Source: Candidatus Omnitrophota bacterium
GTDB taxonomy: Bacteria; Omnitrophota; Gorgyraeia; Zapsychrales; Zapsychraceae
Assembly (NCBI GenBank): GCA_020429915.1
Contig: JAGQKV010000002.1
Location: forward strand, 192,061 to 256,060
Length of the DNA stretch: 64,000 nt
Reading direction: 5' to 3'
Positions 5,740-36,264 of the stretch are shown here, piece by piece; within the stretch, counting starts at the first letter, position 1; each line of letters begins with the position of its first letter. Below the pieces are notes generated by a model. It did not search any database, had not been told where the DNA came from, and worked only from the letters and a program-made list of their open reading frames with translations. Position numbers and translations under genes: made by a program.

Positions 5740-5799
5740 TTTTACCTCCCGAGACTTGATTAATAAGCTATTTCGGAAACTATACTATGAAAATAGCTT

Positions 5800-9213: not shown

Positions 9214-9663
9214 TTATTCTTTCAGCATCAATCGAAACGGGACCATAGTCGATAATTTAAAGCCATGTTTCAGATAAAACCTCTGGGCTGAAGTGTTTGT
9301 TTGATCGGTCAGCAATGTGATTCGCCTGCAGCCGTTGATGTGTGCCACTTGAATAGCGCTTTCAAGTAACTTTGATCCAATGCCGTTACCTCTTGTCTCA
9401 GGCAAGATTACCATATCTTCGAGTATAGCCACGCGTTCGCCCAAGGCAGTAGAAACTGTAAACAGTACGTTGACCATCCCCACAATTTTATTATCCATTC
9501 TAGCGATCATGATGTGCCCAATTTCAGGATTCTCCATAATTTTCAGCAACCCTTTCCTCTGGGCTTCAGCATTTGGCGCAAATTCTTCCTCTTGAGAGAA
9601 AAGTATGTCTAAAAGACGACAAAGTTCGGGGATGTCTGAGTCTGATGCATTAAGAATTTCCAT
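9214..9663 (-). CDS. GNAT-family N-acetyltransferase
   Basis: ...RGNGIGSKLLESAI... Start chosen at MEILNASD to abut the upstream methyltransferase. Confidence 0.75.
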   Translation of the reverse strand: MEILNASDSDIPELCRLLDILFSQEEEFAPNAEAQRKGLLKIMENPEIGHIMIARMDNKIVGMVNVLFTVSTALGERVAILEDMVILPETRGNGIGSKLLESAIQVAHINGCRRITLLTDQTNTSAQRFYLKHGFKLSTMVPFRLMLKE

Positions 9664-9664
9664 C

Positions 9665-13904: not shown

Positions 13905-14495
13905 CTAACTGCGTTTGCGCCGGCGGAATCCGATGCCGAGCAGGCCGCTGCCCAAAAGGGCCAAAGTCGCCGGTTCCGGGACGGTTGCCCGAACAGGGTC
14001 TCCATAAACCTGTAGTCCGGCGGTAAATTTGTAGCCGTTTACCAATGGTGAGAGGTCGTTTATAGTCACCTTCAGTTGCGAAATATCATAACCGGCAAAG
14101 TCAATTCCGTTGCTGCTAAACGATGTTGCGCCGAATTTCAGACTTTCCGGAGTTGTGACGGTATAATTCAGTGAATCAATCGTGCTTACCCACTGGGTAC
14201 TTTCGTTGATGCCGTCCGTGAGAAACGCTTCAAAGGCGGCAAAACCTGCATCTCCCGGGCCGGAGGTGTACATTGTGCCGATCAACGAGGTGTCGCTCCA
14301 GTCAATGGTAAAATCGAACACCTCGCTTTGCGGTTGACCGAGATATCCATAGTTCAGACTGGCGATAGATGAGTTTAGCTGGCTCTCCCCTCTGACAAAA
14401 TAAGCGGGATCATCAAACAATAGCACGGCCTCGCTCGTAGTCTGAACACATAGCGAAATCCCGAACACCAGCATAAGTGCGGCAAATTTCTTCAT
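13905..14495 (-). CDS. PEP-CTERM sorting-domain protein
   Basis: C-terminal VPEPATLALLGSGLLGIGFRRRKRS; N-terminal signal peptide. Confidence 0.85.
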   Translation of the reverse strand: MKKFAALMLVFGISLCVQTTSEAVLLFDDPAYFVRGESQLNSSIASLNYGYLGQPQSEVFDFTIDWSDTSLIGTMYTSGPGDAGFAAFEAFLTDGINESTQWVSTIDSLNYTVTTPESLKFGATSFSSNGIDFAGYDISQLKVTINDLSPLVNGYKFTAGLQVYGDPVRATVPEPATLALLGSGLLGIGFRRRKRS

Positions 14496-19533: not shown

Positions 19534-20445
19534 CTATATCTTCCCCCTGTTGTGCTTCTTGATCACCTTTTCAATTTTTTGCCAATGGGGACGTCCACCC
19601 ATAAGAACACTGACATAGTGAATGCCGGTACCGGCTATCGGACCGGGTTTGCGGGCCTTGCCGCCCATGATTTTCTCGGATTCGAAGATGACCCTGCCCG
19701 TCCCGGGGTCCACGGCATACACCTTGGCATATTGGCGCATCTCCGGAACGGACCCGTAATCAAGCCGGATCCGGCGGTTGGTTTGCTGAGCCCCGTAGCC
19801 GACAATATAGACGTAGGGAACCTCATACCGGACCGGTTCCGGGTGGGCCTTGTCCTGGGAGGCATACAGACTCCTGTATTGCTTTGAGGTCAACAATGTC
19901 CGCGGCCAGTCCCCCCGTGGAAAAAGTTCTTCAAAAGATAATGTCGGCTCCTGTTTCATTTTCTTGGACATGAGAATCACGTACGGTTGACCGGGTGTAA
20001 CGGCGCCGGGAGATTTGGGCAACGGCCCCTCCTCGAGGCGCCGGGAGATCTCCTCAATGCCGGTCAGGGTGGGTTTCAACGTCTCCTCCACCCGTTTTTC
20101 GACGCGTTTCTGATCGCGCAGTGTCTGGCAGAATCCGTACTTGTACGACACGAAGATCAGTCCGACGATAACGATGAAATTGAATGCCTGAAAGACTTTA
20201 TTCCGGTGTGGGGTGCCGCAGACCAGGATCACCAGGAAAAAACCGAGATATGCCGGCGCCACCAATTCGGCCAGATATAGAAAGACATGAAAGATATTCT
20301 GCCCCGGCCCGAACCAGAAGATCCCGGGCAGGAATTGATGCAGCGCCGGGAACAACAGCAGGACCGGGATGCCGTACAGACAAAAGGCCATCAGTTCCAG
20401 GTTGTCGGGCTGATCAGCCGGCGTGTTCGATTGTTCGGTTGTCAT
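19534..20445 (-). CDS. membrane protein (four N-terminal TM segments plus soluble C-terminal domain), last gene of the TPS-associated cluster
   Basis: 303 aa, no known motif. Only 27 bp separate it from the Hcp-like gene. Confidence 0.55.
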   Translation of the reverse strand: MTTEQSNTPADQPDNLELMAFCLYGIPVLLLFPALHQFLPGIFWFGPGQNIFHVFLYLAELVAPAYLGFFLVILVCGTPHRNKVFQAFNFIVIVGLIFVSYKYGFCQTLRDQKRVEKRVEETLKPTLTGIEEISRRLEEGPLPKSPGAVTPGQPYVILMSKKMKQEPTLSFEELFPRGDWPRTLLTSKQYRSLYASQDKAHPEPVRYEVPYVYIVGYGAQQTNRRIRLDYGSVPEMRQYAKVYAVDPGTGRVIFESEKIMGGKARKPGPIAGTGIHYVSVLMGGRPHWQKIEKVIKKHNRGKI

Positions 20446-20472: not shown

Positions 20473-21039
20473 TTACGGCGTGACCGCACACAAGTTGTCT
20501 TCGTCGCAGGCGAAGGAAATCTCCCCGGACGCACCGCCGCGGAGTTCGGCAAAGGACCAGGTTATCTTGTCGAAATTGAGTGATAAAGTCTCGGTCGGAA
20601 TGCTGCCGTCATCCAGTCCGCTGCCGTTGACGGAATAGGACGTCACCTTGACCGAGTATAACCTGAGTTCGAGGTATGAGGGCTCATCACCAGTCCCGGT
20701 GTTCCAAACGATGACGACCTCCGGAAAAGATCTTCCCCCTGCGCAGGCCTGGACCAGCGGCACCGAGGTGCGGTCCACCTCTTTTTCGACCTCGATTTCC
20801 TCAAGGACCACGCCGGCCCGGGCCGCTGCGGGGTCGTCGGCGGCAAAGCCCCAGTTCAGCATGGTGAGATTGATCTCGCCGATTTCCGGGAATATCCCTG
20901 TCACCTTGGTTTTCCCTCCCTTGCCGACCGAACCTGAAATCTTCTTGGCGGCCTCGGCCCGGACCGGACCCAACATCAGAACGACAGACACAAATACGAA
21001 GACCAACAGCATGAGGCGACTTACCGGCATTCCTTTCAT
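20473..21039 (-). CDS. Hcp-family (T6SS tube protein-like) protein carrying an N-terminal Sec signal peptide
   Basis: 188 aa; signal peptide MKGMPVSRLMLLVFVFVSVVLMLGPVRAEA. The mature part carries Hcp-like blocks: SVPLVQACAGGRSFPEVVIVW compared with AVPLLYNALSSGEMLKSVELKW, and ETLSLNFDKITWSF compared with SLTVSLAYRKITWDH / ENVTLNFAQVQVDY. Confidence 0.55.
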   Translation of the reverse strand: MKGMPVSRLMLLVFVFVSVVLMLGPVRAEAAKKISGSVGKGGKTKVTGIFPEIGEINLTMLNWGFAADDPAAARAGVVLEEIEVEKEVDRTSVPLVQACAGGRSFPEVVIVWNTGTGDEPSYLELRLYSVKVTSYSVNGSGLDDGSIPTETLSLNFDKITWSFAELRGGASGEISFACDEDNLCAVTP

Positions 21040-21112
21040 GAGGCTTCTCCTTGTAATGAGGTGAACTGGGTATCGAACACAGAATCCGGTTACCTATCCG
21101 AAATCAATACGC

Positions 21113-21718
21113 TTATAAAGTGTCGGAATACTTTCTGAGCTGATACTCCACGTATCCCGAGAGGATTTCCTGATGCTTTTCCGGCTGGGAAAAACCGAAA
21201 TAAGAATGCTGAATGGCATGCGATATCTCATGGCCGAGGATATAAAAATTGACGGTCCCGGCATTGATAAAGACCGCATTGTCCGCGCTGAGGTAAAACC
21301 CTTCGGGCTGCTCCTGCAGGCCCATTTCCCTGCGCAGGAGTTCGAGCATCTCCTGATCCGCCAGGTAGACCTTGATGCTGGATTGGAAGTTCCAAAGATG
21401 CAAATCCAGCAGGTGCGAGACGACCAGGAACAATTTGTCGACTTCTTCCGCGAGCGACTCGGGGTTTTCAATCACCGGACGGATAATAAGTGTGTCCAGC
21501 GCGACGGGTAAGGTGAGTTGCTTGCGCAGCGCCTCGAGCTCCACCCCCTCCTGGAGATATATTTCAAAGAATTCCGATTTGACGGAAGGACTGTCGCTGA
21601 AGACGCCGGCCAGCGGCGTGGGGAGCGCATTCATCTCGGCCCGGCAGGTCGCCGCCGAAAGAACGAACACAATCACGGCGAATAGCAATCGTGTGATGAA
21701 ATCAGGTTTTAAACTCAT
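21113..21718 (-). CDS. secreted HExxH protein (putative MA-clan zinc metallopeptidase)
   Basis: 201 aa, signal peptide; ...FINAGTVNFYILGHEISHAIQHSYF. Confidence 0.55.
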   Translation of the reverse strand: MSLKPDFITRLLFAVIVFVLSAATCRAEMNALPTPLAGVFSDSPSVKSEFFEIYLQEGVELEALRKQLTLPVALDTLIIRPVIENPESLAEEVDKLFLVVSHLLDLHLWNFQSSIKVYLADQEMLELLRREMGLQEQPEGFYLSADNAVFINAGTVNFYILGHEISHAIQHSYFGFSQPEKHQEILSGYVEYQLRKYSDTL

Positions 21719-22253
21719 CCAGATTTTCTTTGATTTTCCGAGCCCGCTTTAGTTGCTCTCCGGTGAGTTCCCCGGCCTGTTTTTCAAACTGTGCCCATTC
21801 CTTTTGCAGGGTTTGTATGCGTTTGCGCAGGGATTCGCGCATTTCGTCGATGGAAGAGCCCAAATGCTGCAGCTGGTCGTCGGAACGGATCTTGACCCGC
21901 TGACTGAGATCGCCGTTCGCCATCTTCTCCACTTCCCGGTTGATGTTGAACAGCGGTCCGGAGATCTTGTGCGAAAACATCACCGTCAGGATGAGCACCG
22001 CCACAGCCGTCAGGGATGTCGTAACGATCAGGGTCTGGATGATGATGGGCGCGATAAAATCGGAGGTTGTCTTTACCGTGATGCGCAAATCCTCGAACGC
22101 GACGGTCGTGGTGCTCCTGTTCAGGTACAAAATCGTGGTCACCGCCACGATGCTCATCAGGATGATCATCACGCAGAACACCGTAATAAACCGTTTTTGA
22201 AAGGTCTTGTCGATATAGTACTGTTTTCTCAGGTTTTGCGCGCGTGAGTTCAT
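21702..22253 (-). CDS. small membrane protein with HAMP domain and C-terminal coiled coil
   Basis: Two TM segments, then HKISGPLFNINREVEKMANGDLSQRV (HAMP); no output domain. Confidence 0.6.
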   Translation of the reverse strand: MNSRAQNLRKQYYIDKTFQKRFITVFCVMIILMSIVAVTTILYLNRSTTTVAFEDLRITVKTTSDFIAPIIIQTLIVTTSLTAVAVLILTVMFSHKISGPLFNINREVEKMANGDLSQRVKIRSDDQLQHLGSSIDEMRESLRKRIQTLQKEWAQFEKQAGELTGEQLKRARKIKENLDEFKT

Positions 22254-22803: not shown

Positions 22804-25800
22804 TTACTCGGATTCGCGCAGTTTCTCGATGAATTCATACATCTCGGGAGAAAGGTCGAATCCGTCAACGCCCTCTTCTTCCAGCTGATGATAAAAGTAC
22901 ACCGGAGAGGCCATCATTCCGGGGGTGATATTGGCGGCCATGCCCGGGTTATCGACCAAAGTCAGTCCCAGGATCCGAGTGGTGTCCGAGAATCCGACGC
23001 CCGGACGCAGGCTTCCGGAGACCGGCCGCACTCCCAGTGCTTCGAGGTTTTGGTTCAGCGTAAAGGCCACGTAAGCGGTAAATTCCAGGTCCTGGTTACC
23101 GACCGTCACATTGTTGTCCCCGGGAATAATGATACTGACGTCGCCGGGGCTGTAAAGAACGTCCGCGATCACGTTTCCATCCGGAACGGTCAGGGCGATC
23201 AAACCGCGGTCGATGATCTCAATTTGCTGCGACACCAGATCGCCGAAACGCTCCTCCGCGGTGATGCCGGTTTTGGCGAACATATTCAGAAACATCCGCG
23301 AGTCGACCACCAGCCGGTTGTCCTTCTCGCCGATGGCGCCCTGCTCCGCGACCAGGGAGACTTTTCTCCCGAAGATATTGATGTTCTTGTTGCTCAAGTC
23401 CGAATCCAGGATGGAACCGTTGACGGCCTTCAGTCCCACGTCCCCCTTTTCCGAGCGCACGGTGGCGCCGTCGATAACCATGTCGCCGTCCGTCTCGGTC
23501 AGATAGATGTCGCCGCTGGCGTGAGCGTTCAGGAGCCCGGGTTGGGACCACGACATATCAATGTCCAGCGGGTCGTCTTCTTCGCCGATAGCCCCGGCGT
23601 CCGAAAGCAGGGTGATATTGTTGGCGGTGATGTTGGCGTCTTCGGAGTCGCTGCCGTCACTCATCGAACCGCCGGCGCGCAGGTCGACGTCACCTTGAGT
23701 CGAAAAGACCGAGTTGAGCGCAACGTCGCCGTCGATTTCATGCAGCCAGATGTCCTTTGGTGCCGTTGCCGTCAGCCGGTTGGCGCCGGTTTCCAGCCGG
23801 TTGCCGGCCTCTCCGATTTGCCCCAGGATGGAGGTGAGCTGGATGTGATCGCCCTGAATATCCAGCGTGGCATTTTGACCGAAGTCCGCGATGTTCCCTA
23901 CCGCGGTCAGCTGAATATCTCCGGATGTTATCAGCCCGTCCAGGTTAAGTTCATCCTCCGTGGTATGAACGAGATAGAGATCGCCCGTGGAGACGCCCTT
24001 GAGGAACCCTGCCGGGTCCAGGGCGAATTCCACCGGATTCGTTTCGCTTCCGACCGCATTCGCATTGAGAAAAAGACTGGTGGCACGGATATTGTCGATC
24101 GGATTGCCGTTGGCGTCCGTGATCGCGCCGGCGGCCGAGAGATTGACGGTGTTCGGCGCAAACACGGTGTCCAGATTCAGATTGCCGGCGAGTTCCTTCA
24201 CAAAGATGTTATCGCCCGCGCGCGCGGTGAACCGGGCGTTGTCGAACAGGTCGGTGGTCACCGGCCGGCTCACCAGGCCGATACTGTCTTCGGCGGCTTC
24301 AATGATCAGGTCGTTGCCGGTGATGGTGGGCGCGGAATCCAGCGACACGTCATATACGCCCAGGGCGCCTTTGATGCGGACATTGTCACCGGCCACGATT
24401 TCATCGAGATTCAGGTCCGTTTCGCCGCCGAGGAAGACCTTGTCCCCGGCATGAATGATCACGGAATCCGCCTGCACGTCCACGTCGCTGCGGTTCTGAA
24501 TGATGATGCGGTCGTCCAGTACGGTGAAATCGTCTTTCTCCGCGGCGGTCATGATGATCTGCTGTTCGCGCGTAAGTTCTTCGCCGTCGTTGAGGAGAAT
24601 GACCTCTTCTCCGTTATCCTGTCCGAGCCCGCCGCTGATGTTCAGGACGATATTCTTGCCGATGATATTCGCTTCCTCGATAAGGGTCTCGGTATCCGAC
24701 ACTTCCTTAAACACGTCGCCCACGATGGAATAGCGCAGTTCATCCTCGGTCCACACGGCGCCGTCCTGGATGGTATCGATGTCGGCCTGTGTGATCGTGT
24801 ATTCATATTGCGGATCAAAGGCCGTGTTGCCGTATTCGGCGGCGAGGGCCTGGTAGTTGTCGGTCAGTTCGGACTCATAGGCATTGATCTGCTGTTCGTC
24901 CCAACCCTGGTTGTCCGCGAAGGCGGCGCGTTCTTCGGCGGTGAGCGTCACCACAAAGTCCGGATCGTGGGCTGTGGGGTCTGTCTGCCGGCTGCGGACG
25001 GACCAGTAATCCTGATACTCCTGTTCCTTGCGGTCTTTAAACGCCTGCACCTCGATATCCGCCGCCTCGATGGCGCCGTCTTCCAGGCGCAGGTCCATGT
25101 CCTCCCAGAAGGCGACCAATTCCGCTTCCGTGCGGGTATCCCGTTGATCGTTGAAGTTGTAATCCACCAGACTGCCGTTATCGACACCAATTTCCACGTC
25201 GCCCGTCAGTGACCGGACCTGGACCACCTGCAGGTCGTCCTGGATTTCCTCCAGGTAAATGCTTCCCGGGGCTATCGCGTACAATCCGGAGGCCTCGGTG
25301 GTCCCGGTGTCCAGGCGGATCGGCCGGCCGGACTCGCCGATGGACCCGTCGAACGCGTCGAGATTGACGAAATTCCCGGCGATCAGCGAAGACGGCCCGG
25401 CCGCGAGGATGCCTTTATCCGACATCACCGACACATTCCCGTTGCCGGTCGTGATCTGATCGAAGACCACGTCGCCGAAGATCTCCTCGATACGGATATC
25501 TCCGGCCGCGGATTGCGCGTTTAACACGAACTCTTCATCCACCCTGACGGTGGAGAGATTGCCGATGCCGGAGCCTGCCGAGAGGCTGACGTTGTTGCCC
25601 TTGATCTCGACATTGGTGTTCAGCTGATTGATGGCCCCCTGCAGGGAGGTCAGATTCGTGTCGCCGGTTTTATTGTTGAATTTGCCGTTGATCAACAGGC
25701 CGCCGTTGGACAGGACGTCGATGGCCGAGGAATCATAACCGGTAAACTCGATGCCGATCGGGTGGTCGGCCTTGATGCTGTGGACGTGAAAGTCCTTGGT

Positions 25801-28800
25801 CCCCTTTTCGTAAGTAAGTTCGCGATAGTAATCCAGAACACCGAAAACGAAGGCCCGCCAGGTGACCCGGGAATACTGGCGGCTATTTGTCAGCTTATAG
25901 TCCGACAGAGACCGGTTTTCAAAGTCATAAATATATCCACTGGCATTGGCTTGGTCAAAGGCCAGGTAATCGCCCTCCAGGAGCGGGACATTGTCCAGGG
26001 GAATAGTTGTTTCGGTATCATACTGGGTATCACCGAATAGAATCGGCGTATTCCAAAAACCGAATCCCTTGTAGACCCGTCTTTTCCTGACGATGAAGTT
26101 CTGCCCTGTCGTCCATACGTAGCGCTGATCTTCCAGGGGTGCATACTCCGCCAGCCTGCCGGAGATGGTATTGGCCAAATTGTTGGGATTACCGTCTCCA
26201 TCACGGGTCATGCTGTCGACAACCTGGACATTGTCTCCGATGTGCGTATAGATGGTTTCCAGCGGCAGTCCGTCCGCGGTCCGCCTTCCTAAATCAGTAA
26301 TTCGCAGAATCCCCTCAATACCTTTTCCGGTGTCGAGCCGGTTTAAGACCATATCATGGGCGCTGTTGTTGACGATGTTGATGCGCCCGAACCCGTCGAT
26401 GACCTTCAACTGCCCGGCGCTGCCGCCCGTATTCAGAATATGGCCGAAGATCTCCATCCGGCCGCCTTCCACCCGGACACCTTCCAGTTCGATGCGGTCC
26501 ATCTCGACATTGTAGAAGGCTTCAATGTTTCCGGATGAGGCGACACGGTAAAAAGGCGATGCCTCGGGGTCCAGATCGATAAACCGGCGCTGGATGAAAT
26601 CCGCGCGCGCCCAGTCGATGGTCTGCAGATTGCCGAGCTCGTCCAGCAGCTGCAGGTTCGCCGGGACCACCAGGGCCTGATCAGGAACCCCCGACTGGAT
26701 GAGACCGTTGATATTGAGATAGCGGGCGCTTAAGAAGACATTGTTGCCGGCTATGATAGCGCTCTGGCCATTGGCGCTGCGTACGCCGTTTACAGCGCGG
26801 TCTGTTCTTGATGCTTCGGAGGCCTCGGCGACGTCTTCCCAATGGGATTTGGGATCGCCTCCCGCGTGGAAGAAGCCATCGATAAAACTCAGGACAAAGT
26901 CCCGGCCGGATTCAATGTCTATGGTATTGGCATTGATGTTGGCCTTAACGTGGATACTGCCGGCACTGTTCTTGATGGCCACGGTGCCGTCTAAGTTGGT
27001 GATGTTCCCGACCACCTCGATGGTAGGGGCCGGAAACGGATTATTGACATTTTGCGGGGCGTCCGGGTTATACGTCGCCTCGACATGGATCAGCGGTTCG
27101 GCGGAGTTGTCGGCAGTCACCACCGAAGAAAAAGCGGCCGCGGCACCGTTGTTGATCACCGATATATCCTGATTGTCGGACACGGGCCGGTTATTGAACA
27201 AAAAGGTCCCGCCGTTATCGTCATCGGGTATCGTCAGCCGGTTGGTCCGCAGGTACTTGGGGCTGTGGTTGACAATCCTGATCTCGGTGTCTCCCGGCGC
27301 CTCCAGGATCCCGGTCCCGACCAGCCGGTCTGCCAGGACATACATGTCCCCGCTCTGCGCGTAGGCGTCGTCGACATTGATAAACTCGACATCAGAAACG
27401 TACTGGGCCTCCCCTTCCGAAAGTTGATTTAATTCTGCCAGACTCTGTTTGAGGCGTACGATTTCGTTTTCATATGCCAGGCGGGTGTCATCGAGTTCCG
27501 AATACTCATTCTTGAGCTCTTCATAGCGTTCGATTTCATTGAGGATATTCTCGGCCAGGTTTTCGACGGTCTCAAAGAAAGTCACGCCTTCATCCTGCCG
27601 CAGGACATCCCCGTTCGCCCCGATAATGAGATACTGTTTGTTCTTGAATCCCGCCTTGACCTTCCCGAGGACCGTGACAACGGCTGAACCGGAGGTCGTG
27701 TTATTGCGTTTGGTGGTCTTGGTGGAGCCGCTGCCGCCGAATAATTTGGAGAAGAAGCCGACGATCTCTTTCCACAGATCGGTCGCCGTGCCGTAACCGT
27801 CGGAGTTTAACGAGCCGTTGTTCGCATACATATATACGTCGTTCAGGGCGCCGACGTCCGCGGTGGTATCCACGAAGATGTCGTTGGTGGTGACAGTACG
27901 CGCCTCGGCATCCGGACTGCCGTTGATGGGGATCGCGGTTTTATTGTTGATATCGACCCGGGCCCTGGTACTGATGGAGTTCTGCCGGCCGTACTCATCG
28001 CGACCGGCATACAAATGAATGTCCTTGTCCGAACGGATGACGACCCCGGGACGGACGATGGTATCGTTGTACACATTGGTCCGGGCAAGGGCCTCGCCCG
28101 ATGCCCCTCCGGCCACCCCGTAGGTCTTGGTCTTCGCGTCGGCGTCCAAATTGACATTGCCTCGGGTGGCCAGGATGATATTGCCCTGGCTGATTAAATT
28201 GGCGTTCGTGCCGACCTCCACGCGGTTTTCATGAATGTCGTTCTTCAATTCCGATTCGGACTTGGCCACGGCAATCCCGCCGCCGGCGCTGAGTTTGACC
28301 CGGTCGGTGGCAGAAACGTCGCTGGTCGCGGATAAAACAAGATCACCGGATTCCACCGTGTCCCGAACGTCATTGACGACGTTTTCGGCCTCCGGCACGC
28401 CGACGTGGATCATTGTGTTCTGGCCGATCAACGCCTGGGTCCGGTTCGTGATGGATGAAGTGCTTTTAGCTGCCGGCAGGTCGAACACGCCACCGGAACC
28501 GGACGCCACATTCTGACCCACACCATTTTTGTCAAGATCCGTATTGGCCTTGGCCTTCAGTTCTTTGGCAAAAATGACATTGTTCGGACGGATATCGGCC
28601 GTGACGCTGGTGTTGACCGTGTTCGTGGCGCGGGCCCCGCTGGCACCGAGCACCGAGGCATTAATGCTGTCTGAGCGGGCGTTAAAAGTTCCGAAATAAT
28701 CCGATAACAGGCTGAAGGTATCCGCTGTGATCACGTTCCCTGTCCCGTTTCCGACATAACTATTTACGTTGGTGGTCAGGGAACTCGTCGCATTGGCCGC

Positions 28801-31800
28801 GGAGTCGGAGATGATGCCGCCCTTTCCCGCCTTGGTATCCGCGAATACCGTATCCTTTCCGGAGGCCTCGATGCTGAGATCTCCGCCGTTAATGACGACC
28901 CCGGAATCGATATAACTATGAGTCGTTGTATTCGTGGTGGCGGTGGACCGGTTGGCGCCGCTGGCAATCAAACCACCGTGATAGGCCGAGGCGTATGAGC
29001 GTGTGCCGGTATCGTTGTTGGCCTTGACCTGAGTGGAGTTGCTCATCGTCAAGGTCGAGTTGCCACCGATATAGCTGTACACGCTGCCTTCATTTCGCGC
29101 CTCGGCCCGGGTGGCATCGCCACCTAATAAAAATCCTGAGGAGGCAAAGGCCTCTGCATTGGCGGAGGTCCCGTCTCCGTCACCCTGTTCCGCGAATACC
29201 AACAGGTCTTCGGCCTCGATCGCGACAATCTCTCCGATATAAGCCCGAATTTCGGGGCTTAGATCGACCTTGGAGTTCGAGAGGCCGACCGCGAATCCAC
29301 CGAGGCTGATGCCGAAAGTGTAGGCATCACCGTTTCCGTCGGCCGTTGCCCGGACGGAGATTCCCTCCGCCACTTTCAGCGTAGCACCGTTACCGATATT
29401 GGCTAAGACTTCGTCGTCCACTTCCACCAAGGCGTCTAGTCCCAGACCGGACAAAACGCCCCCCGAACCGCCATAGGCGTTACTCTCATAATCAAAGTCG
29501 CGCTTGGCCAGTAAGGAAACGTTGTTAACGACTTTTTCCGGAAGTATTCCGATGCGGGTGTTGGCTCCGATATGACTTCGGGTGACACCGAATTGTTTAA
29601 TCTTGGCTATAGATGCACCTGCGGTTCCTAAAGATAAACGGTATCCATGTGCGTCCGCATCCACCTTGCTGTTGAAATCGGCTTCAAGAGTCAGGTTGTT
29701 GGCTTCAACGATCTGCGTGTTATCTCCTAGCAAGGTCTCGGTGCTATTGTTGGCTTCAAACTCCGCTACCGCTGCCCCAATGGTTACACCCCCGAATTGA
29801 CCGGCAAAGCCCAGTATCTCTGAATCTTCGATGTCGGTTTCGGCCTTCAAGGTGATATCGTTGCCGGCGGTAAGTTTGGCGCCGGCCCCGGTAAAGGCCT
29901 TTGTGGCCCCGTCGGTATTTCCGACGGCCACACCCGCCCCGATGCTGAGACCTCCAATGTCCGCGACACCGGCGGTTAATTGTAAGGCGTTAATGTCATG
30001 GGCCTTGATCCGAATATCGCGGCCACTATTAATGACGGCGTCGGAACCGACATAGGCCGTGGTGTTGGTGTCCTCAGTTTGGTTTTGATCGAAGGAATCA
30101 TCGACGGAGATGCTTTCGTTTTGCGTCTCGGCGTTTATGTCCGCGAAGATATCATCGCGGCCGGCCTCGGTCTGAATACTGTCCGTCGTGGAACCCTGGG
30201 TGTTTGCGGTCTGCATGGTGGTGCCAGCTGCCTCGTTCCCTTCCCCGGTTAGATTGCTGGCAATCTTGGCCACCGAAACGGCCCCGCGCACACTGCCGAT
30301 ACCGGCCCCGGCATTGACACTCAGCGAATCGATGGACTTGTCGGACTCGGCCTCGACGTGAATATCCCTTTTGGCATAGACCTCCGATCCGGCCTTGATG
30401 GCCGCGGATGTCGAGGTACGGATGGTGGCCACATCGATCGAGGCCCCCAAACTCACCGCTCCCCCAGAACCGCCGCCGATATCGTCATCGATCTTCGAAC
30501 GGCTCGTTGCCGTCACGTGGACATCCTGCTCGGCGGCTGCCAAGGTTTGGTCTTCATTGATGATGGTGGTGCCTTCCGCTTCTTCAATATAGGCCTCGGT
30601 CGCGGACTTGATGATGTTGGAGGCGATCGCGCCGGCGGCGCCCACGTACTTACCCAGGGCGGCGCTCACCACGTAGGAGGCAATTTCCTGATCCGCATCT
30701 GCCGTGACCCATAGCTGATCGTGGGCGGTCACCCGTGAATCGGTAATGCGGGCAACGGTGTCATTTTCGATTTTAGAGACCATCACCGAACCGCCCACGC
30801 CTCCGCCTCCGCCGACCGCCACGGCACCAGCCAGTACACCGAAGCCGTCGCCGTCGGCGCTCTTGCCGATCTTGACGGTGTTGTCGGCGGTCACCGATGC
30901 ATTGCGTCCCGCCGTTACGGTGGAATCTTCGATATAACTCTCGGTGGTCGTGTCGGTGTTTAGAATCGGGACCGATCCGGCGATCGCCGCTATCGTGGAA
31001 CCACCGCCGCTGACCACCACTGAGCGAATTCCCTCTTCACTGACGGCATCCACCGTTACATCCTGTTTGGCCCGCACAAGCGAGTCCCCCGAAATGTAGG
31101 CCTTGGTGGAATTCTTAATCTTGGTGATATCCACGGTGCCTCCGAACCCGGCAAAGTTCAGACCGACGGCCAGAGCACCGGCCTTAACATCGACATCGGT
31201 GCTGTTAAAGGCCCGGATAACCGCCGACTGGCTGTCGGCGACATCGGTCGTTTGCACCGCGTTCAGTTCCGCATCGTCGACATAGGCCTCGGTAGTGTGT
31301 TCCACCTCGGAATATGAAACGGCGCCGGCAAAAGCCCCGGTGCGCCCGCCGCTGACATTCATACTCCAGATATCATGGTCTTCGGAAGACTCGGCGACAA
31401 TACCGATGCCGTTCAGGTCCACCGTGTTACCGGTGCCGTCGGCCTTGGAGATCATAAGCGCCTGTTGACCGTCCGCGTGCAGATCGGTCCCGCCGGCGGC
31501 ATAGGCCTTGGTGGTATTCTTGGAGATATTGACACCGACCGTTCCGCCGATCCCGGTCGCGCTGGCCTCTTTTCCGGCCAAGGCAATGGCCAGCCGGCCG
31601 CCGTAGAAATTGATGTCTTCCGCCGACTCGGCGTGGATGTAGATGCTGTCGTCCGCAGTTAACTTGGCATTGTTGGCATACGCCAAGGTCTCATTGGTCA
31701 GCTTGTTGCCGGCCGCGGATCCCGCCACGGACCAGCCGCCCGACACGGACCCGCCCACCGCCACGGTCTCGATCTCCGCGTCCGATTTGGCGTCCACGAT

Positions 31801-34800
31801 CACATTGCCGCCAGTGGAGTCCAGTTCGGCCGTCTCGGAATAGGCCCGGGTCTTGCTGTCGATTTCATTGTAGGCCGTGGAAATGCCGATCGCATTGGCC
31901 TGACTTAACCCGACATCACCCGCTCCGGACCCGATGCGTGAATCGTCTTCCGCACGAACGGCAATGTCCCCTTCCGAATCAACACTGCGGCCGCTGTCTG
32001 ATTCATCTTGTATATACGCATCTGTCTCATTGGTGATTTCATTGATCGTCACGGCCACGGCGGCGGCCATAAAATCGAGGCTCCCTCCGATCGCCGCGCT
32101 GACCCCGATGATGTCGGCCATGTTTTTGGCGAACAGGTCGATGCCCGCCTGTGTGCCGAGATCACTGTTCAGCAGGTACGCATCGGTTTCATTGCCGATC
32201 TGGTTATAAGAGAATGACGCCCCGACACCGGCCTTGGACCCGTAGGAGACCGAACCGGCCACGGCCACGATCGACGATACATCGGTCGCGGTGAGCCCGA
32301 CGGTCGTGGGCCGGAGGATCGAGGCGGCGGGATCGTCCTTCAGAGTGGACCCCTCGATATAACTATTGGTCTTGTTGTGGATTTCGTTGACGGCCACCTG
32401 GCCTGCGATAGCGATCCCGGAGCCCGCCGGATTGTGGGCGACGGAACCGCCGGCCGCCACGGCGTCGATATCCGCTTCGGACTTGGCCTCGAGATTGACG
32501 GCGGCACCATCCGCGGTCACCTGAGATGAACGGATGAACGCGTCATTTTGCAGTTCGATGGTATTGACCGTGGCCGCTCCCGAGAGTCCGGTGGACGTGG
32601 TCCCGGCCCCGGCTACGATGGTGGCGGACCCCGTCACCCCGTCGATGGCGCTGTTGTCCATGGCCGACAGGTCGATCTGTTCGGCGTTCACTTCGGACTC
32701 GTTGATGTAGGCGCGGCCTTTGTCCGAGATGGTGTTGTAGGCGACGGCACCTGAGAAGCCCACGCCGTACTTGCCCGCCCCGCCGGAGGCCGCTCCCCCG
32801 CTGCTGGTGGGCGACTCTCCGGCCGGACTGACCACGGCCCCGGCCAGCGACCAGGAACTGATGGACCCCTCGTTGGCCGCGGCGACCTTGAGTTTACCCG
32901 ATGTGTTCACTTCGCCGTCCGTATCATCGGTGTGATCGGCGTTGCCGGTGTCGTTTCCGATCACCGCCTGGGTATTGCGGTCGATATCACTGAGGGAAAT
33001 GGTGAATCCGACGCCGACCGCGCCGCCCTTGGTGATGCCGCCGCTCACATTGTACAGCTGCGCTTCGTCACGCGCCTCCACGATGACGTTTTCGGAATCA
33101 TCCCCCGCCTCATTCCACGCCCCGGCGCCCGTGGTGATCGCGGCGCCGTCATCGATGAGGGCCAGGACATCATTGTCGACGTCGAGGTAACTAAAGGTGC
33201 CGCTCACGCCGTATTGACCGGCCTTGCCCCCGGCCTCGGCGATGGCGATTGTCCGGGCCTCTGAATCGGCCCTCACCTTGAGCTTGTCCGCGTACACCTG
33301 TGCGCTGTTGTCGATGACGGCCTCCACCACCGATCGGTATTCGTTTTGCAGATACGCCCCGCCGACACCGGCCTTACCGCCACCGACTCCAATTCCTTTA
33401 AGTCCGAACACGCCCGACAGATTGACCGTCTCGATGTCCGCCTTGGCCTCAACCTTGACGTCCTGGGTCCCGGTCCGGAAGCTGTCGGTTTGATTGATGA
33501 GCTCCTGGTCCTGATTGATCCGCGCGCTTTTGCCGATGGTGGCGGTGCTCTCGGTGTCAAATCCGGCGAAGTTTCCGGAGCCGGAGACACCGATATCCTC
33601 AACGGCGGCATTGCTCTGCGCCCAGGTGGTGAAGAATCCGTTTTGGATTCCAATGTTTGTGTTGAGTTTGTCGGTGATATCGGACACGCCGCTGATCTGA
33701 TGCCACTCGATTTCATAGGGAATCGACACGTCGGACAGGACATGGATGAGTTGTCGAGCATCCACTTCGGCATTGTTATTGACGGCTGCCGCGGCATCGT
33801 TTTCATACAGCCCGACGGCCACCGATCCCGCAAAGGCTTTGCTTTTCTGGGCCGTGAGGCCGGAGTCCACCGTGGCGACGGTGCTGTTTTCGACAACATC
33901 CGTAATGAGCGATTCAACGTTGACATTCTGGTCCGCTTCCACATCTGCGTTGCCGTTGATCTCAGCGGTGGCTGTGTTGTGATGTTTTGAAATGGACAAA
34001 GCCGCGGACAGGGCAAAATTCGCCTTGGACTGTTTGTGCGTTCCCTGGGTTTCCCGTCCCAGGGCCTGATTCCAGCGGTCCTTGGCTTCGGTGCCGCGTC
34101 CCTTTCCTAAACTGATAATGCTTCCCCCGAACAAACCGCTTCCAACCGCGGACGTGGCGTTGGCATCGTTCTTTAGTGATGATATTTCCGATGTTACGAC
34201 AACGTTACCGCTTGAGATCAGCTCTCCGTCGACCTTGGCCGTAGTAGTGAAGTTCGATTCCGAATAGGTCACCGAGACCCCCAGGACGCCGTCTTCATAT
34301 GCACCCACGGTGGCCGCCGCGTCCAGTGATTTATCGGAATACGCCTCGACGTTGATATTATTTCCTTTAATTGTCGAACCCGATTGGATGTCTGTCGTAG
34401 CGGTGCTGTTGACCAGAACCACCGTGTTAGCCAGATCCGCCTTGGTCCCGGCCGACGAACCGCTGAGTTCGCCTAAATTGAACGTGAAAGACTTCATGCT
34501 CATTAGGACGTCCGTCTCAGATTTTACGGTGACATCACCACCGGCCGAAATGAGTGCACCGTCTTGAATTGTCACACCGGCAATGGCATCTGCTTCGCCG
34601 TAGGCCACTGAGGCGGCGATGCCCGCGGCATCCAAAGTAGAATTCGTCGTGGCGGATGAGCGGGCTGTGAAATTCTCCGAAGCCGCGATGTCCGCATGGC
34701 CGATCATAATGTCGGAGGTCGAGTCCTGATTGGTGATCGCCCCGAACAAGAACACGTCATTGATGAAATCGAGCGCGTCGATAAAAAAGTCGCTGGCCTG

Positions 34801-36264
34801 GTCCGGGCTGTCAAAACGCCCAAAGGTATTGGCTTCAGAAATCAGGGAGACATTCTTTCCCTTGATAGTCGCATTCCCAACCGTGATGCCGGAGTTCGCC
34901 ATGGATATGTTTGAGATAATTACCTGACCGGCCTGATCGGCGATGGCCTCCAGTGTGACGTCTCCCGCGTTATGCCCGTTATCGGCGTAGGCCGTGAGCC
35001 AAGCGCCGTCGTTCACATTGATTTGGTCGGCCTCCAATCTGAGATTTCCGGAATCTCCAACGGAGGTCCCCGTTTGATGATTGGAGCCGATGATATCGCG
35101 TGTTGAAAGCAGGACATTCTCATGAATCGTAATTCGTTGGTCGGCTTCCATTGTTAAATCGGCACCATCGGTTAAGTGGTCCATCATCACATCCAACGTA
35201 GGGGGGTCGATCAAAATACTTCCCTTACGCCCGTCATCGGATCTGGCGCTAAGGTGCCCTGACCACAGTACGTTATTCCCGGCACTGAGTTCAATAAATC
35301 CCCCATCTCCGGAGATCTCTCCCCCACTGACGTCAACCATGCCAAATTCATCCAGCCGTGCGTTTTGTCCGCCCCACAAGTAAATCTTGCCGCCCGAAGA
35401 ATTCTCTTCCGCCCCCTTGGCCGTCACCAGGGATCCGTCCGTGAGTAACAGGTCACGGCCCGACGCGATGCTGATGTCTCCGGCGTCCGAACCCGCTGCG
35501 CCGTCTGCGCGCACCTCACCGGATATTTCAATGTCGTTGAGCGTCACGATTTCGATGACCCCGCTGTCATCGACGCGGATATCGGCCCCGGCGCTGGCGC
35601 CGTCGATATTGATGATATCCCCCAAAGTGGGCACGGCAGCAGAATGACCGGCCCGGACCTGTCCCGCATGGTCCACCGATCCGGCCGCGATGCGGACCGC
35701 ATCCAGCGCGTTGATCTTGCCTTTGATGGAGATGATTCCGTTGTCGGACAAGGGGACGTCACCGGCCAGGACCGCGCTGATCGCGGCTGAGGATACGGTG
35801 CCCGAGGGGGAGACGATGCTCTCCAGGAATTCCTTTGTGGGCGTGATGGCTGTGAGCGATCCGACATTGATCACACCTTCCGCCCCGACCACCAGGCCGT
35901 GCGGGTTCAGGAAGAAGACATTTCCGCCGACGGCCCCGTTGGCAATCGAAGTGAGGACCCCGTCGATGTGTGAGGTCCGGTCGTGGACCAGGTTCAGCAG
36001 ATTGGTCGTTCCCGCCGGCAGATGCAGGTTGACGGTGTTGCCCTGGTGGACGTCAAACTTGGAGAAGGAGTTCAGCGCGTTGTTGCCCTGGCGCGTGGCG
36101 GTGAAGACGTCGGTGGTCTTCCCCTTGATGTCGAGCGTCGTCTGCGTCCGGCCGTCGGTCACGATCTGCTGGGCGGCCGCCAGCGAGGTTTGCGAAACGA
36201 TGAGACAGGCCGCGGTGAAGATGGACGTGAATTGATGAAGCATCGAATGTCTGCGCATGATCAA
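22804..36264 (-). CDS. giant TpsA exoprotein (filamentous-haemagglutinin/FhaB-like adhesin), 4486 aa
   Basis: Signal peptide, then a TPS (haemagglutination-activity) domain: NALNSFSKFDVHQGNTVNLHLP...NLVHDRTSHIDGVLTSIANG...GGNVFFLNPHGLVVGAEGVINVGSL. This is followed by thousands of residues of Gly/Ala/Ser/Thr-rich beta-helix repeats, an internal coiled coil, and an acidic C-terminal tail. Confidence 0.9.
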   Translation of the reverse strand: MIMRRHSMLHQFTSIFTAACLIVSQTSLAAAQQIVTDGRTQTTLDIKGKTTDVFTATRQGNNALNSFSKFDVHQGNTVNLHLPAGTTNLLNLVHDRTSHIDGVLTSIANGAVGGNVFFLNPHGLVVGAEGVINVGSLTAITPTKEFLESIVSPSGTVSSAAISAVLAGDVPLSDNGIISIKGKINALDAVRIAAGSVDHAGQVRAGHSAAVPTLGDIINIDGASAGADIRVDDSGVIEIVTLNDIEISGEVRADGAAGSDAGDISIASGRDLLLTDGSLVTAKGAEENSSGGKIYLWGGQNARLDEFGMVDVSGGEISGDGGFIELSAGNNVLWSGHLSARSDDGRKGSILIDPPTLDVMMDHLTDGADLTMEADQRITIHENVLLSTRDIIGSNHQTGTSVGDSGNLRLEADQINVNDGAWLTAYADNGHNAGDVTLEAIADQAGQVIISNISMANSGITVGNATIKGKNVSLISEANTFGRFDSPDQASDFFIDALDFINDVFLFGAITNQDSTSDIMIGHADIAASENFTARSSATTNSTLDAAGIAASVAYGEADAIAGVTIQDGALISAGGDVTVKSETDVLMSMKSFTFNLGELSGSSAGTKADLANTVVLVNSTATTDIQSGSTIKGNNINVEAYSDKSLDAAATVGAYEDGVLGVSVTYSESNFTTTAKVDGELISSGNVVVTSEISSLKNDANATSAVGSGLFGGSIISLGKGRGTEAKDRWNQALGRETQGTHKQSKANFALSAALSISKHHNTATAEINGNADVEADQNVNVESLITDVVENSTVATVDSGLTAQKSKAFAGSVAVGLYENDAAAAVNNNAEVDARQLIHVLSDVSIPYEIEWHQISGVSDITDKLNTNIGIQNGFFTTWAQSNAAVEDIGVSGSGNFAGFDTESTATIGKSARINQDQELINQTDSFRTGTQDVKVEAKADIETVNLSGVFGLKGIGVGGGKAGVGGAYLQNEYRSVVEAVIDNSAQVYADKLKVRADSEARTIAIAEAGGKAGQYGVSGTFSYLDVDNDVLALIDDGAAITTGAGAWNEAGDDSENVIVEARDEAQLYNVSGGITKGGAVGVGFTISLSDIDRNTQAVIGNDTGNADHTDDTDGEVNTSGKLKVAAANEGSISSWSLAGAVVSPAGESPTSSGGAASGGAGKYGVGFSGAVAYNTISDKGRAYINESEVNAEQIDLSAMDNSAIDGVTGSATIVAGAGTTSTGLSGAATVNTIELQNDAFIRSSQVTADGAAVNLEAKSEADIDAVAAGGSVAHNPAGSGIAIAGQVAVNEIHNKTNSYIEGSTLKDDPAASILRPTTVGLTATDVSSIVAVAGSVSYGSKAGVGASFSYNQIGNETDAYLLNSDLGTQAGIDLFAKNMADIIGVSAAIGGSLDFMAAAVAVTINEITNETDAYIQDESDSGRSVDSEGDIAVRAEDDSRIGSGAGDVGLSQANAIGISTAYNEIDSKTRAYSETAELDSTGGNVIVDAKSDAEIETVAVGGSVSGGWSVAGSAAGNKLTNETLAYANNAKLTADDSIYIHAESAEDINFYGGRLAIALAGKEASATGIGGTVGVNISKNTTKAYAAGGTDLHADGQQALMISKADGTGNTVDLNGIGIVAESSEDHDIWSMNVSGGRTGAFAGAVSYSEVEHTTEAYVDDAELNAVQTTDVADSQSAVIRAFNSTDVDVKAGALAVGLNFAGFGGTVDITKIKNSTKAYISGDSLVRAKQDVTVDAVSEEGIRSVVVSGGGSTIAAIAGSVPILNTDTTTESYIEDSTVTAGRNASVTADNTVKIGKSADGDGFGVLAGAVAVGGGGGVGGSVMVSKIENDTVARITDSRVTAHDQLWVTADADQEIASYVVSAALGKYVGAAGAIASNIIKSATEAYIEEAEGTTIINEDQTLAAAEQDVHVTATSRSKIDDDIGGGSGGAVSLGASIDVATIRTSTSAAIKAGSEVYAKRDIHVEAESDKSIDSLSVNAGAGIGSVRGAVSVAKIASNLTGEGNEAAGTTMQTANTQGSTTDSIQTEAGRDDIFADINAETQNESISVDDSFDQNQTEDTNTTAYVGSDAVINSGRDIRIKAHDINALQLTAGVADIGGLSIGAGVAVGNTDGATKAFTGAGAKLTAGNDITLKAETDIEDSEILGFAGQFGGVTIGAAVAEFEANNSTETLLGDNTQIVEANNLTLEADFNSKVDADAHGYRLSLGTAGASIAKIKQFGVTRSHIGANTRIGILPEKVVNNVSLLAKRDFDYESNAYGGSGGVLSGLGLDALVEVDDEVLANIGNGATLKVAEGISVRATADGNGDAYTFGISLGGFAVGLSNSKVDLSPEIRAYIGEIVAIEAEDLLVFAEQGDGDGTSANAEAFASSGFLLGGDATRAEARNEGSVYSYIGGNSTLTMSNSTQVKANNDTGTRSYASAYHGGLIASGANRSTATTNTTTHSYIDSGVVINGGDLSIEASGKDTVFADTKAGKGGIISDSAANATSSLTTNVNSYVGNGTGNVITADTFSLLSDYFGTFNARSDSINASVLGASGARATNTVNTSVTADIRPNNVIFAKELKAKANTDLDKNGVGQNVASGSGGVFDLPAAKSTSSITNRTQALIGQNTMIHVGVPEAENVVNDVRDTVESGDLVLSATSDVSATDRVKLSAGGGIAVAKSESELKNDIHENRVEVGTNANLISQGNIILATRGNVNLDADAKTKTYGVAGGASGEALARTNVYNDTIVRPGVVIRSDKDIHLYAGRDEYGRQNSISTRARVDINNKTAIPINGSPDAEARTVTTNDIFVDTTADVGALNDVYMYANNGSLNSDGYGTATDLWKEIVGFFSKLFGGSGSTKTTKRNNTTSGSAVVTVLGKVKAGFKNKQYLIIGANGDVLRQDEGVTFFETVENLAENILNEIERYEELKNEYSELDDTRLAYENEIVRLKQSLAELNQLSEGEAQYVSDVEFINVDDAYAQSGDMYVLADRLVGTGILEAPGDTEIRIVNHSPKYLRTNRLTIPDDDNGGTFLFNNRPVSDNQDISVINNGAAAAFSSVVTADNSAEPLIHVEATYNPDAPQNVNNPFPAPTIEVVGNITNLDGTVAIKNSAGSIHVKANINANTIDIESGRDFVLSFIDGFFHAGGDPKSHWEDVAEASEASRTDRAVNGVRSANGQSAIIAGNNVFLSARYLNINGLIQSGVPDQALVVPANLQLLDELGNLQTIDWARADFIQRRFIDLDPEASPFYRVASSGNIEAFYNVEMDRIELEGVRVEGGRMEIFGHILNTGGSAGQLKVIDGFGRINIVNNSAHDMVLNRLDTGKGIEGILRITDLGRRTADGLPLETIYTHIGDNVQVVDSMTRDGDGNPNNLANTISGRLAEYAPLEDQRYVWTTGQNFIVRKRRVYKGFGFWNTPILFGDTQYDTETTIPLDNVPLLEGDYLAFDQANASGYIYDFENRSLSDYKLTNSRQYSRVTWRAFVFGVLDYYRELTYEKGTKDFHVHSIKADHPIGIEFTGYDSSAIDVLSNGGLLINGKFNNKTGDTNLTSLQGAINQLNTNVEIKGNNVSLSAGSGIGNLSTVRVDEEFVLNAQSAAGDIRIEEIFGDVVFDQITTGNGNVSVMSDKGILAAGPSSLIAGNFVNLDAFDGSIGESGRPIRLDTGTTEASGLYAIAPGSIYLEEIQDDLQVVQVRSLTGDVEIGVDNGSLVDYNFNDQRDTRTEAELVAFWEDMDLRLEDGAIEAADIEVQAFKDRKEQEYQDYWSVRSRQTDPTAHDPDFVVTLTAEERAAFADNQGWDEQQINAYESELTDNYQALAAEYGNTAFDPQYEYTITQADIDTIQDGAVWTEDELRYSIVGDVFKEVSDTETLIEEANIIGKNIVLNISGGLGQDNGEEVILLNDGEELTREQQIIMTAAEKDDFTVLDDRIIIQNRSDVDVQADSVIIHAGDKVFLGGETDLNLDEIVAGDNVRIKGALGVYDVSLDSAPTITGNDLIIEAAEDSIGLVSRPVTTDLFDNARFTARAGDNIFVKELAGNLNLDTVFAPNTVNLSAAGAITDANGNPIDNIRATSLFLNANAVGSETNPVEFALDPAGFLKGVSTGDLYLVHTTEDELNLDGLITSGDIQLTAVGNIADFGQNATLDIQGDHIQLTSILGQIGEAGNRLETGANRLTATAPKDIWLHEIDGDVALNSVFSTQGDVDLRAGGSMSDGSDSEDANITANNITLLSDAGAIGEEDDPLDIDMSWSQPGLLNAHASGDIYLTETDGDMVIDGATVRSEKGDVGLKAVNGSILDSDLSNKNINIFGRKVSLVAEQGAIGEKDNRLVVDSRMFLNMFAKTGITAEERFGDLVSQQIEIIDRGLIALTVPDGNVIADVLYSPGDVSIIIPGDNNVTVGNQDLEFTAYVAFTLNQNLEALGVRPVSGSLRPGVGFSDTTRILGLTLVDNPGMAANITPGMMASPVYFYHQLEEEGVDGFDLSPEMYEFIEKLRESE

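Follow-up and report, generated by a model that had tools for sequence, protein, structure and literature searches.

An Omnitrophota protein that NCBI names a type VI secretion system (T6SS) tube protein carries the features of a Sec export signal ahead of an Hcp domain, and its gene lies in a window (the whole stretch of DNA that we analysed, 64 kb long) in which we found no T6SS genes. Because membership of the Hcp family is here combined with a real Sec-type signal peptide and an absence of T6SS genes nearby, the evidence supports the view that this protein is not a T6SS tube subunit. We lean towards a reading in which it would be exported by Sec, processed, and assembled into a ring in the cell envelope, where it would act as a T6SS-independent holder or scaffold. 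Its likeliest partner would be TM303, an orphan membrane protein encoded next door.

The gene and the features of its product are as follows.

20473..21039, minus strand: gene of the exported Hcp-family precursor (188 aa, ATG start, stop codon included; Pfam T6SS_HCP, E 1e-17)
21047..21052, minus strand: Shine-Dalgarno sequence AAGGAG, 7 nt before the ATG; the motif ACAAGGAGAA likewise precedes the ATG of the orthologue
20950..21039, minus strand: predicted Sec signal peptide, residues 1-30, with n-region MKGMPVSR, h-region LMLLVFVFVSVVLML and c-region GPVRAEA
20911..20949, minus strand: AKKISGSVGKGGK, the predicted mature N-terminus and probable strand beta1 (exact-pattern scan, alignment)
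20554..20880, minus strand: Hcp domain as matched by Pfam (residues 54-162)
20476..20514, minus strand: C-terminal tail with the Cys pair FACDEDNLCAVTP (C178, C184), a pair kept in relatives

Sequence searches and structure prediction agree on the family. The protein matches Pfam T6SS_HCP (PF05638) from residue 54 to 162, covering model positions 18-128 of 129, with 65.1 bits against a gathering cutoff of 23.5 (E 1e-17). This was the search that the earlier note on this DNA had proposed, and the three peptides on which that note had based its Hcp assignment (VPLVQACAGG, FPEVVIVW and ETLSLNFDKITWSF) all lie in the product of 20473..21039. A phmmer search of PDB sequences returned Hcp1, EvpC and other Hcps. 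An AF2 model of the mature part, built on a 141-sequence alignment, reached pLDDT 77 and pTM 0.73, with the first 14 mature residues below pLDDT 50. It supersedes an earlier model of the full precursor built on 21 sequences (pLDDT 54, N-terminal 78 residues below 50). Each of the top 50 Foldseek matches to this model in the PDB was an Hcp structure, or else a chimeric construct or complex with Hcp in it. TMq values reached 0.77 at most and stood at about 0.75 across 155-166 columns, the entire length of the mature chain; the best Hcp structure was Pseudomonas aeruginosa Hcp1 (PDB 1Y12; TMq 0.77, 158 columns). The domain match and the structural match together confirm the proposed membership of the Hcp family, with a complete Hcp or phage-tube beta-barrel as the predicted fold. 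The more specific TssD model TIGR03344 gave 36.2 bits, under its cutoff of 58.9.

The product is identical to P0001, which NCBI lists as 'type VI secretion system tube protein Hcp [Candidatus Omnitrophica bacterium]'. Its occurrence on 49 contigs, the longest of 764 kb, rules out an oddity of assembly. Its tail holds a Cys-x5-Cys pair that recurs in the orthologue P0002 (VCDEEGIC) and in the exported relatives P0055 and P0066, and C178 and C184 may form a disulfide. The pair is limited to a small subgroup of the exported Hcp relatives, among which we found no general enrichment in cysteine.

The N-terminus has every feature of a Sec signal cleaved by signal peptidase I (SPase I), as judged by a rule that calls for a positive n-region, an uncharged h-region of 7-15 residues and small residues at positions -3 and -1. 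K2 and R8 supply positive charge, and the uncharged h-region of 15 residues is followed by a Gly-Pro break and then by AxA-type sites. Hydropathy and the -3/-1 rule yield two candidate SPase I sites, VRA|E and AEA|A, with cleavage after A28 or A30. Inspection of the precursor N-terminus revealed neither a lipobox Cys nor a twin-arginine motif.

Could this signal be an artefact of start-codon choice in an ordinary cytoplasmic T6SS Hcp? The NCBI name would fit such a protein, and a GGAGG-like stretch lies 10 nt ahead of a potential GTG start at codon 46. The sole orthologue that we found (P0002, on contig L003; 69% identical) argues otherwise. It retains the Shine-Dalgarno sequence, the ATG and the reading frame, conserves both signal-peptidase sites (VRA, AEA), and has a rewritten h-region that is still hydrophobic. 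Across codons 19-43 the two genes differ by 11 synonymous changes and 1 non-synonymous change, which points to purifying selection on this segment in the signal-peptide frame. The possible internal starts V46 (GTG) and M60 (ATG) read ATC and AAG in the orthologue, and initiation at codon 46 would also delete strand beta1. The absence of T6SS genes across 64 kb and the sub-threshold TIGR03344 score tell against the artefact as well, and we give an ordinary cytoplasmic Hcp next to no credence. On the sequence evidence, the signal peptide is genuine coding sequence and is translated. The earlier note had described a clear n-h-c signal peptide and had conceded that a start-codon artefact would undo its claim; the description is borne out, and the artefact is excluded on sequence.

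A different doubt is whether the signal is cleaved. The hydrophobic N-terminus might serve as an uncleaved signal anchor that tethers the Hcp domain to the outer face of the inner membrane, much as archaeal and Patescibacteria relatives have an anchor-like arrangement of a 20-residue hydrophobic segment and a linker of 20-30 residues; the adjacent TM303 is itself a membrane protein. Yet the h-region here has just 15 residues, and the Gly-Pro break leads into good signal-peptidase sites, VRA and AEA, that the orthologue conserves. The residues after AEA also match the sequence with which two other proteins begin, a hint that this end is processed. We consider an anchor unlikely.

Those two proteins (L021, L022) come from metagenomes and are unrelated, and AKKISGSVGKGGK makes up their first 13 residues after Met. 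One ends in a PEP-CTERM-like tail, and a peptidoglycan-binding domain is present in the other. Their genes are preceded by good ribosome-binding sites and, compared with each other, show synonymous differences within the tag; neither protein has a hydrophobic signal peptide. If cleavage occurs at AEA|A, all four proteins would share the same free N-terminus. In alignment, AKKISGSVGKGGK occupies the place of Hcp strand beta1, which the AF2 model renders as a low-confidence strand, and G11 of the mature protein falls on the invariant Gly of the Hcp 'DG' turn. The motif was absent from domain-model libraries and the searched literature, and a scan of viral contigs for it found nothing.

The core of the protein leads back to T6SS-type Hcps. 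Its closest relatives without a signal peptide (P0005-P0027, which start MAGFMYFKD) are 65-77% identical to residues 71-163. At the top of this range is P0005, a planctomycete-type Hcp (77%). P0014, of the same group and 70% identical over the same stretch, comes from Maioricimonas (Planctomycetota) and sits in a full T6SS cluster, between ClpV and TssK/L/M and downstream of TssB, C, E and F. Outside residues 71-163 nothing in P0005 could be aligned with the window protein, and the N-terminal 40 and C-terminal 25 mature residues differ from those of the T6SS relatives. With identity of up to 77% in the core and no alignable sequence beyond it, the Omnitrophota protein is, by these comparisons, a T6SS-type Hcp core of the planctomycete-type clade with new ends and an export signal.

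We considered a recent horizontal transfer and discarded it. The Hcp gene has the same GC and GC3 as the genes around it, and codon divergence from the Maioricimonas gene is substantial: identical residues use identical codons in 57% and different codons in 43%.

From 37937 down to 19534, every gene lies on the minus strand. The genes around the Hcp gene are:

36261..37937, minus strand: TpsB, outer-membrane transporter (Pfam ShlB, E 3.3e-24; POTRA_2, E 2.5e-16)
22804..36264, minus strand: TpsA, 4486-aa two-partner-secretion (TPS) passenger with a TPS domain in its N-terminal 500 aa
22260..22733, minus strand: membrane-anchored protein with a SurA N-terminal-like chaperone domain (Pfam SurA_N_3 and SurA_N_2, above cutoffs)
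21702..22253, minus strand: protein with two transmembrane (TM) segments and a HAMP domain (Pfam HAMP, E 2.5e-10)
21113..21718, minus strand: SP201, 201 aa, with a signal peptide and a HEISH (HExxH) motif in its translation
19534..20445, minus strand: TM303, orphan membrane protein, 27 bp downstream of the Hcp gene

The earlier note had placed the Hcp gene right after a TPS operon. The operon is real: TpsB combines POTRA and ShlB-barrel domains, and the N-terminal 500 residues of TpsA match the Pfam TPS domain (E 1.9e-16, 61 bits against a cutoff of 33.5). A Pfam scan of TpsA at its whole length had overlooked this domain, and beyond it we found no Pfam family match in TpsA. The Hcp gene does not, however, follow directly, as three small genes spanning about 1.7 kb stand between. 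The nearest of them, SP201, for which family matches were sought and none found, lies 73 bp upstream of the Hcp gene; this gap shows no sigma-70-like promoter and only a weak hairpin.

The same note had observed that no T6SS genes lie nearby, and this holds across the window. Its Pfam-annotated called genes include no T6SS family, and tblastn with TssB, C, E, F, K, L and M of a planctomycete cluster returned nothing from the 64 kb. The T6SS core genes with which a tube subunit would be encoded (TssA-M, VgrG) are thus missing from the 64-kb window, the rest of the genome being out of view. The window likewise holds no secretin or T2SS gene.

The neighbour that recurs is TM303. On L003, a contig of 2.2 kb, the Hcp orthologue is flanked by a TM303 homologue (59% identical) and by an unrelated 120-aa gene, while the SP201, HAMP and SurA_N genes are not beside it on those 2.2 kb. 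The order of the Hcp gene and TM303 on L003 is opposite to that in the window; the TM303 homologue stays beside the Hcp orthologue despite this rearrangement. Since the orthologue keeps a TM303 homologue and not SP201, HAMP or SurA_N, the conserved association is, as read from this one orthologue on its 2.2-kb contig, that of Hcp with TM303, the only neighbour conserved. We regard TM303 as the likeliest working partner of the exported Hcp on the strength of this linkage. A topology sketch gives it 3-4 TM segments, an acidic N-terminus and a basic 200-aa tail that probably lies in the cytoplasm; only the short loops of TM303 could then touch a ring in the periplasm. TM303 has zero matches in Pfam, NCBIfam and the PDB, and neither a search of 5.8 billion proteins nor a metagenome scan returned homologues from beyond the window's own species.

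Exported Hcps extend well beyond this locus. Among 134 single-domain relatives in the set that we retrieved, a simple hydrophobicity rule finds a signal-peptide-like N-terminus in 79 (about 59%), often directly before the canonical strand 'AAxYLKIDGIxGES'. HMMER, run exhaustively on 1.84 billion representatives, returned 1323 matches. In an enlarged set of 259 relatives, 114 carry 16-135 extra residues that include an uncharged hydrophobic segment, and most of the rest start at most 3 residues from the domain. For 20 exported Hcps the nearest neighbour, taken without a tree, is non-exported, which suggests several independent gains of export.

A profile search recovered exported Hcps from the complete genome of an archaeon, Ca. 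Nitrososphaera evergladensis SR1, and from a Patescibacteria MAG, with no T6SS genes at either Hcp locus. We know of no T6SS in archaea or Patescibacteria. The earlier note had suggested a survey for Sec-signal Hcps in genomes lacking a T6SS, and these proteins come from organisms in which none is expected. No T6SS core genes came into view at ten loci of exported or lipoprotein Hcps, while non-exported relatives in Maioricimonas and Novosphingobium sit inside T6SS clusters. In three bacterial lineages an exported Hcp gene is followed by a second, longer one, and in one lineage this pair comes directly after genes for a T2SS-like ATPase, T2SSM and a secretin. A narrow derived pattern, run against genome contigs, picked out 6 loci.

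Many of the best matches to the window protein are long proteins with tandem Hcp domains. By an alignment-built profile, 13 proteins have six domains in one chain, 10 have two and one has three. The proteins with four or five domains all appear to be cut short at one end, and the eight matches in a single further protein are fragmentary. Nearly all tandem forms have planctomycete-type 'R..LE.R.LL' N-termini, Sec signal peptides or lipoboxes, and the six-domain planctomycete forms carry dockerin-like and other surface-type domains. Domain counts of 1, 2, 3 and 6 are the divisors of six, as expected if a six-domain ring is the selected unit, and suggest indirectly that exported Hcps have kept the hexameric ring, on evidence from relatives at 26-37% identity. 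Chains of 2, 3 and 6 domains offer a direct test of the ring as selected unit.

The searched literature, thin on subscription journals, held no description of a signal-peptide, periplasmic or tandem Hcp, an absence that is not proof of novelty. The only trace that we found of an Hcp class with an export signal is a methods remark by Howard et al. 2021, who removed Hcp genes with a PEP-CTERM sorting signal from their census (PMC8262886); exported Hcp-domain proteins had thus already been seen in databases. A secretome study lists T6SS_HCP-domain proteins in the extracellular proteome of a granule community, and in a preprint on Omnitrophota giant genes the T6SS appears merely as a structural comparison.

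From these features we infer export, processing, ring formation and some binding function, in the following steps. The Sec translocon would carry the precursor across the inner membrane, and signal peptidase I would cut off its first 28-30 residues, with AEA|AKK as the likeliest site. What remains, some 158 residues, would fold as a complete Hcp beta-barrel, and a six-membered ring would form in the periplasm or on the surface of the host, whose diderm envelope is supported by its outer-membrane machinery (TpsB/Omp85). With no T6SS sheath, baseplate or spike, such a ring would be a holder or scaffold for a partner protein, for which TM303 is the likeliest candidate, rather than an injection tube.

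Other uses of an exported ring deserve weighing against this one. The earlier note had suggested a ring chaperone for the TPS passenger, and a periplasmic ring devoted to chaperoning the unfolded 4486-aa TpsA, or to conducting it towards TpsB, would suit a gene on the same strand 1.7 kb downstream of a real TPS operon, with no sigma-70-like promoter in the 73-bp gap before it and with envelope proteins, a SurA_N-like chaperone among them, in between. That adjacency is a matter of one genome. The orthologue has TM303 and the unrelated 120-aa gene for neighbours on its 2.2-kb contig, and TPS genes occur at none of the nine other exported-Hcp loci examined; nor, by this count, is Hcp a conserved accessory of TPS operons. 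The operon already has a SurA-like chaperone, and exported Hcps are also encoded by an archaeon and by Patescibacteria, which lack an outer membrane and with it the TPS pathway. We find the TpsA role improbable, and the idea of the earlier note is not supported. Its other suggestion, a standalone carrier, is a possible role for the exported Hcp.

Somewhat less improbable, though still doubtful, is that the protein leaves the cell altogether after Sec export, to build an extracellular tube, fibre or surface-layer element or to act as a released carrier. The Hcp pair behind T2SS-like ATPase, T2SSM and secretin genes would fit this, as would the dockerin-like and surface-type domains of the six-domain planctomycete forms, the T6SS_HCP proteins detected in the granule-community extracellular proteome, and the Hcp-domain genes whose PEP-CTERM signals mark cell-surface sorting (Howard et al. 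2021, PMC8262886). For the Omnitrophota Hcp itself, the 64-kb window has no secretin or T2SS genes, the protein has no PEP-CTERM tail, and we saw no sign of ring stacking without a sheath. A defensive decoy seems a long shot: here a periplasmic copy of an attacker-type Hcp ring would capture Hcp-dependent effectors injected by T6SS-armed neighbours. The core is unusually close (70-77%) to the T6SS Hcps of another phylum and has had its ends replaced, which is circumstantial; exported copies turn up in organisms that T6SSs attack and that do not use one themselves; and Hcp lumens reportedly bind small effectors. The decoy has no known precedent, however, its support is circumstantial only, and it leaves the linkage to the orphan TM303 unexplained.

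Beyond the holder or scaffold that we prefer for the Omnitrophota protein, we entertain a broader proposal, possible but short of probable. Sec-exported Hcp rings, along with lipoprotein and planctomycete-signal forms, might constitute a widespread class with 1, 2, 3 or 6 domains per chain, found also in archaea and Patescibacteria, that works as a ring machine of its own, in the envelope or outside the cell. The window protein would belong to this class, and AKKISGSVGKGGK, its processed N-terminus, would serve as a tag held in common, such as a strand exchanged with the identical N-termini of other envelope-type proteins, or one recognised as they are.

Hcp is a marker of type VI secretion in genome annotation, in T6SS censuses and in 'Hcp in the supernatant' assays. 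If many Hcp-family genes encode Sec-exported proteins unrelated to the T6SS, annotations and censuses over-count the system. The proposal, if true, would also mean that a ring derived from phage tails was recruited at least once more, this time into the cell envelope, and that this happened in Omnitrophota, ammonia-oxidising archaea and Patescibacteria, whose surface biology is poorly known.

How, then, does the Omnitrophota Hcp compare with known systems? With the T6SS tube protein Hcp/TssD, represented by P. aeruginosa Hcp1 (PDB 1Y12), it shares the sequence family and, by prediction, the complete fold. T6SS Hcp has no signal peptide and assembles in the cytoplasm inside the TssBC sheath, whereas the Omnitrophota Hcp has a predicted cleavable Sec signal peptide, scores below the TIGR03344 cutoff, has unrelated ends and lies in 64 kb without T6SS genes. 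The PEP-CTERM Hcp-domain proteins that Howard et al. 2021 set aside and did not study (PMC8262886) appear, like it, destined for the envelope, by means of a tail that the Omnitrophota protein lacks. Evolved or specialised Hcps (Hcp-ET) also re-use the Hcp core with added parts. Theirs is an N-terminal Hcp with a C-terminal toxin, cytoplasmic and T6SS-dependent, while the Omnitrophota protein adds an N-terminal export signal and has no toxin domain. SurA and Skp resemble it in proposed compartment and general role, and a SurA_N-like gene lies in the adjacent operon; with no relation in sequence or fold, the analogy is one of function only.

A further comparison is with Hcp as receptor. Silverman and colleagues are said to have described the Hcp lumen, in Mol Cell in 2013, as a receptor and chaperone of small T6SS effectors, a role for which Howard et al. 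2021 (PMC8262886) is a second reference. Holding a partner in the 40-angstrom lumen is the only known activity of Hcp that needs no sheath, and it would be open to the Omnitrophota protein if the ring is kept. The known lumen-receptor Hcps are cytoplasmic and are fired by the T6SS, whereas an Omnitrophota ring would load, if at all, in the periplasm. A lumen that holds its partner without a sheath thus provides a model for how an exported Hcp ring could work.

Export of Hcp-family proteins is predicted well beyond the Hcp gene of the window, and these proteins occur as single domains, neighbouring pairs and tandem arrays. Within the window, four further genes are of note:

13905-14495 (-), PEP-CTERM-tagged protein
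21113-21718 (-), 201-aa protein with a signal peptide plus the motif HEISH (HExxH)
22804-36264 (-), TpsA, 4486 aa
60894-61655 (-), PEP-CTERM-tagged protein

Because it combines a signal peptide with the HExxH signature, the 201-aa protein could be a small metalloprotease that is exported, its gene closing the TPS operon; family and PDB searches with it returned no match. TpsA scanned whole against Pfam gave no match, its first 500 residues match the TPS domain (E 1.9e-16), and the 4000 or so residues beyond them match no family. The presence of two PEP-CTERM-tagged proteins in the window makes it probable that its organism sorts proteins with an exosortase system.

The mature N-terminus predicted for the window Hcp carries a 13-residue tag, AKKISGSVGKGGK, directly after the signal-peptidase site (20911-20949 (-)). 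The identical tag follows the initial Met of two other proteins, at 939-977 (-) of contig L021 and 5758-5796 (-) of contig L022. One of these carriers is a PEP-CTERM-like protein and the other a PG_binding_1 protein, both without a hydrophobic signal peptide. DNA differences between L021 and L022 inside the tag are synonymous, and therefore the peptide itself is conserved.

Hcp-family proteins with a hydrophobic N-terminal segment followed by a linker are encoded by the ammonia-oxidising archaeon Ca. Nitrososphaera evergladensis SR1 (CP007174.1; L017, 10001-10630) and by a Patescibacteria MAG (L018, 7227-7823), with no T6SS genes around either gene. Elsewhere, predicted exported Hcp genes lie in neighbouring pairs:

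L019, 8001-9331
L020, 8001-9357, where T2SSE, T2SSM and secretin genes precede the pair
a JGI 3300056388 contig

Each paired protein has a signal peptide. The first is 182-186 aa long and the second 250-261 aa, the longer one carrying an additional C-terminal domain of about 90 residues that ends in FF.VEE.P.

P0047 (434 aa) is an unusual protein that joins an RHS-like N-terminal part to four partial repeats of a planctomycete Hcp segment, GWIELNSVTQTV...VPLVQACSGG, and an alphaproteobacterial MAG encodes a stand-alone Hcp C-terminal fragment (L014, 10001-10144). Either sequence could represent a pseudogene or an artefact of assembly.

Other relatives that are predicted to be exported carry several Hcp domains in one chain:

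six domains each: P0039-P0042, P0046, P0054, P0058, P0059, P0073, P0077, P0094, P0098, P0124
three domains: P0045
two domains each: P0048, P0052, P0063, P0064, P0069, P0072, P0099, P0168, P0186

Nearly all of them begin with an export signal of planctomycete type, a Sec signal peptide or a lipobox. A Longimicrobiales MAG (Gemmatimonadota; L015, about 9300-10315) likewise encodes a two-domain Hcp lipoprotein with the lipobox LLAGC, and no T6SS core genes were detectable in the 10 kb on each side of it. We found no description of tandem-domain exported Hcp proteins in the literature searched. Domain number is 2, 3 or 6, with 4-5 confined to truncated-looking sequences; these counts fit a six-domain ring built from a single chain or a few chains.
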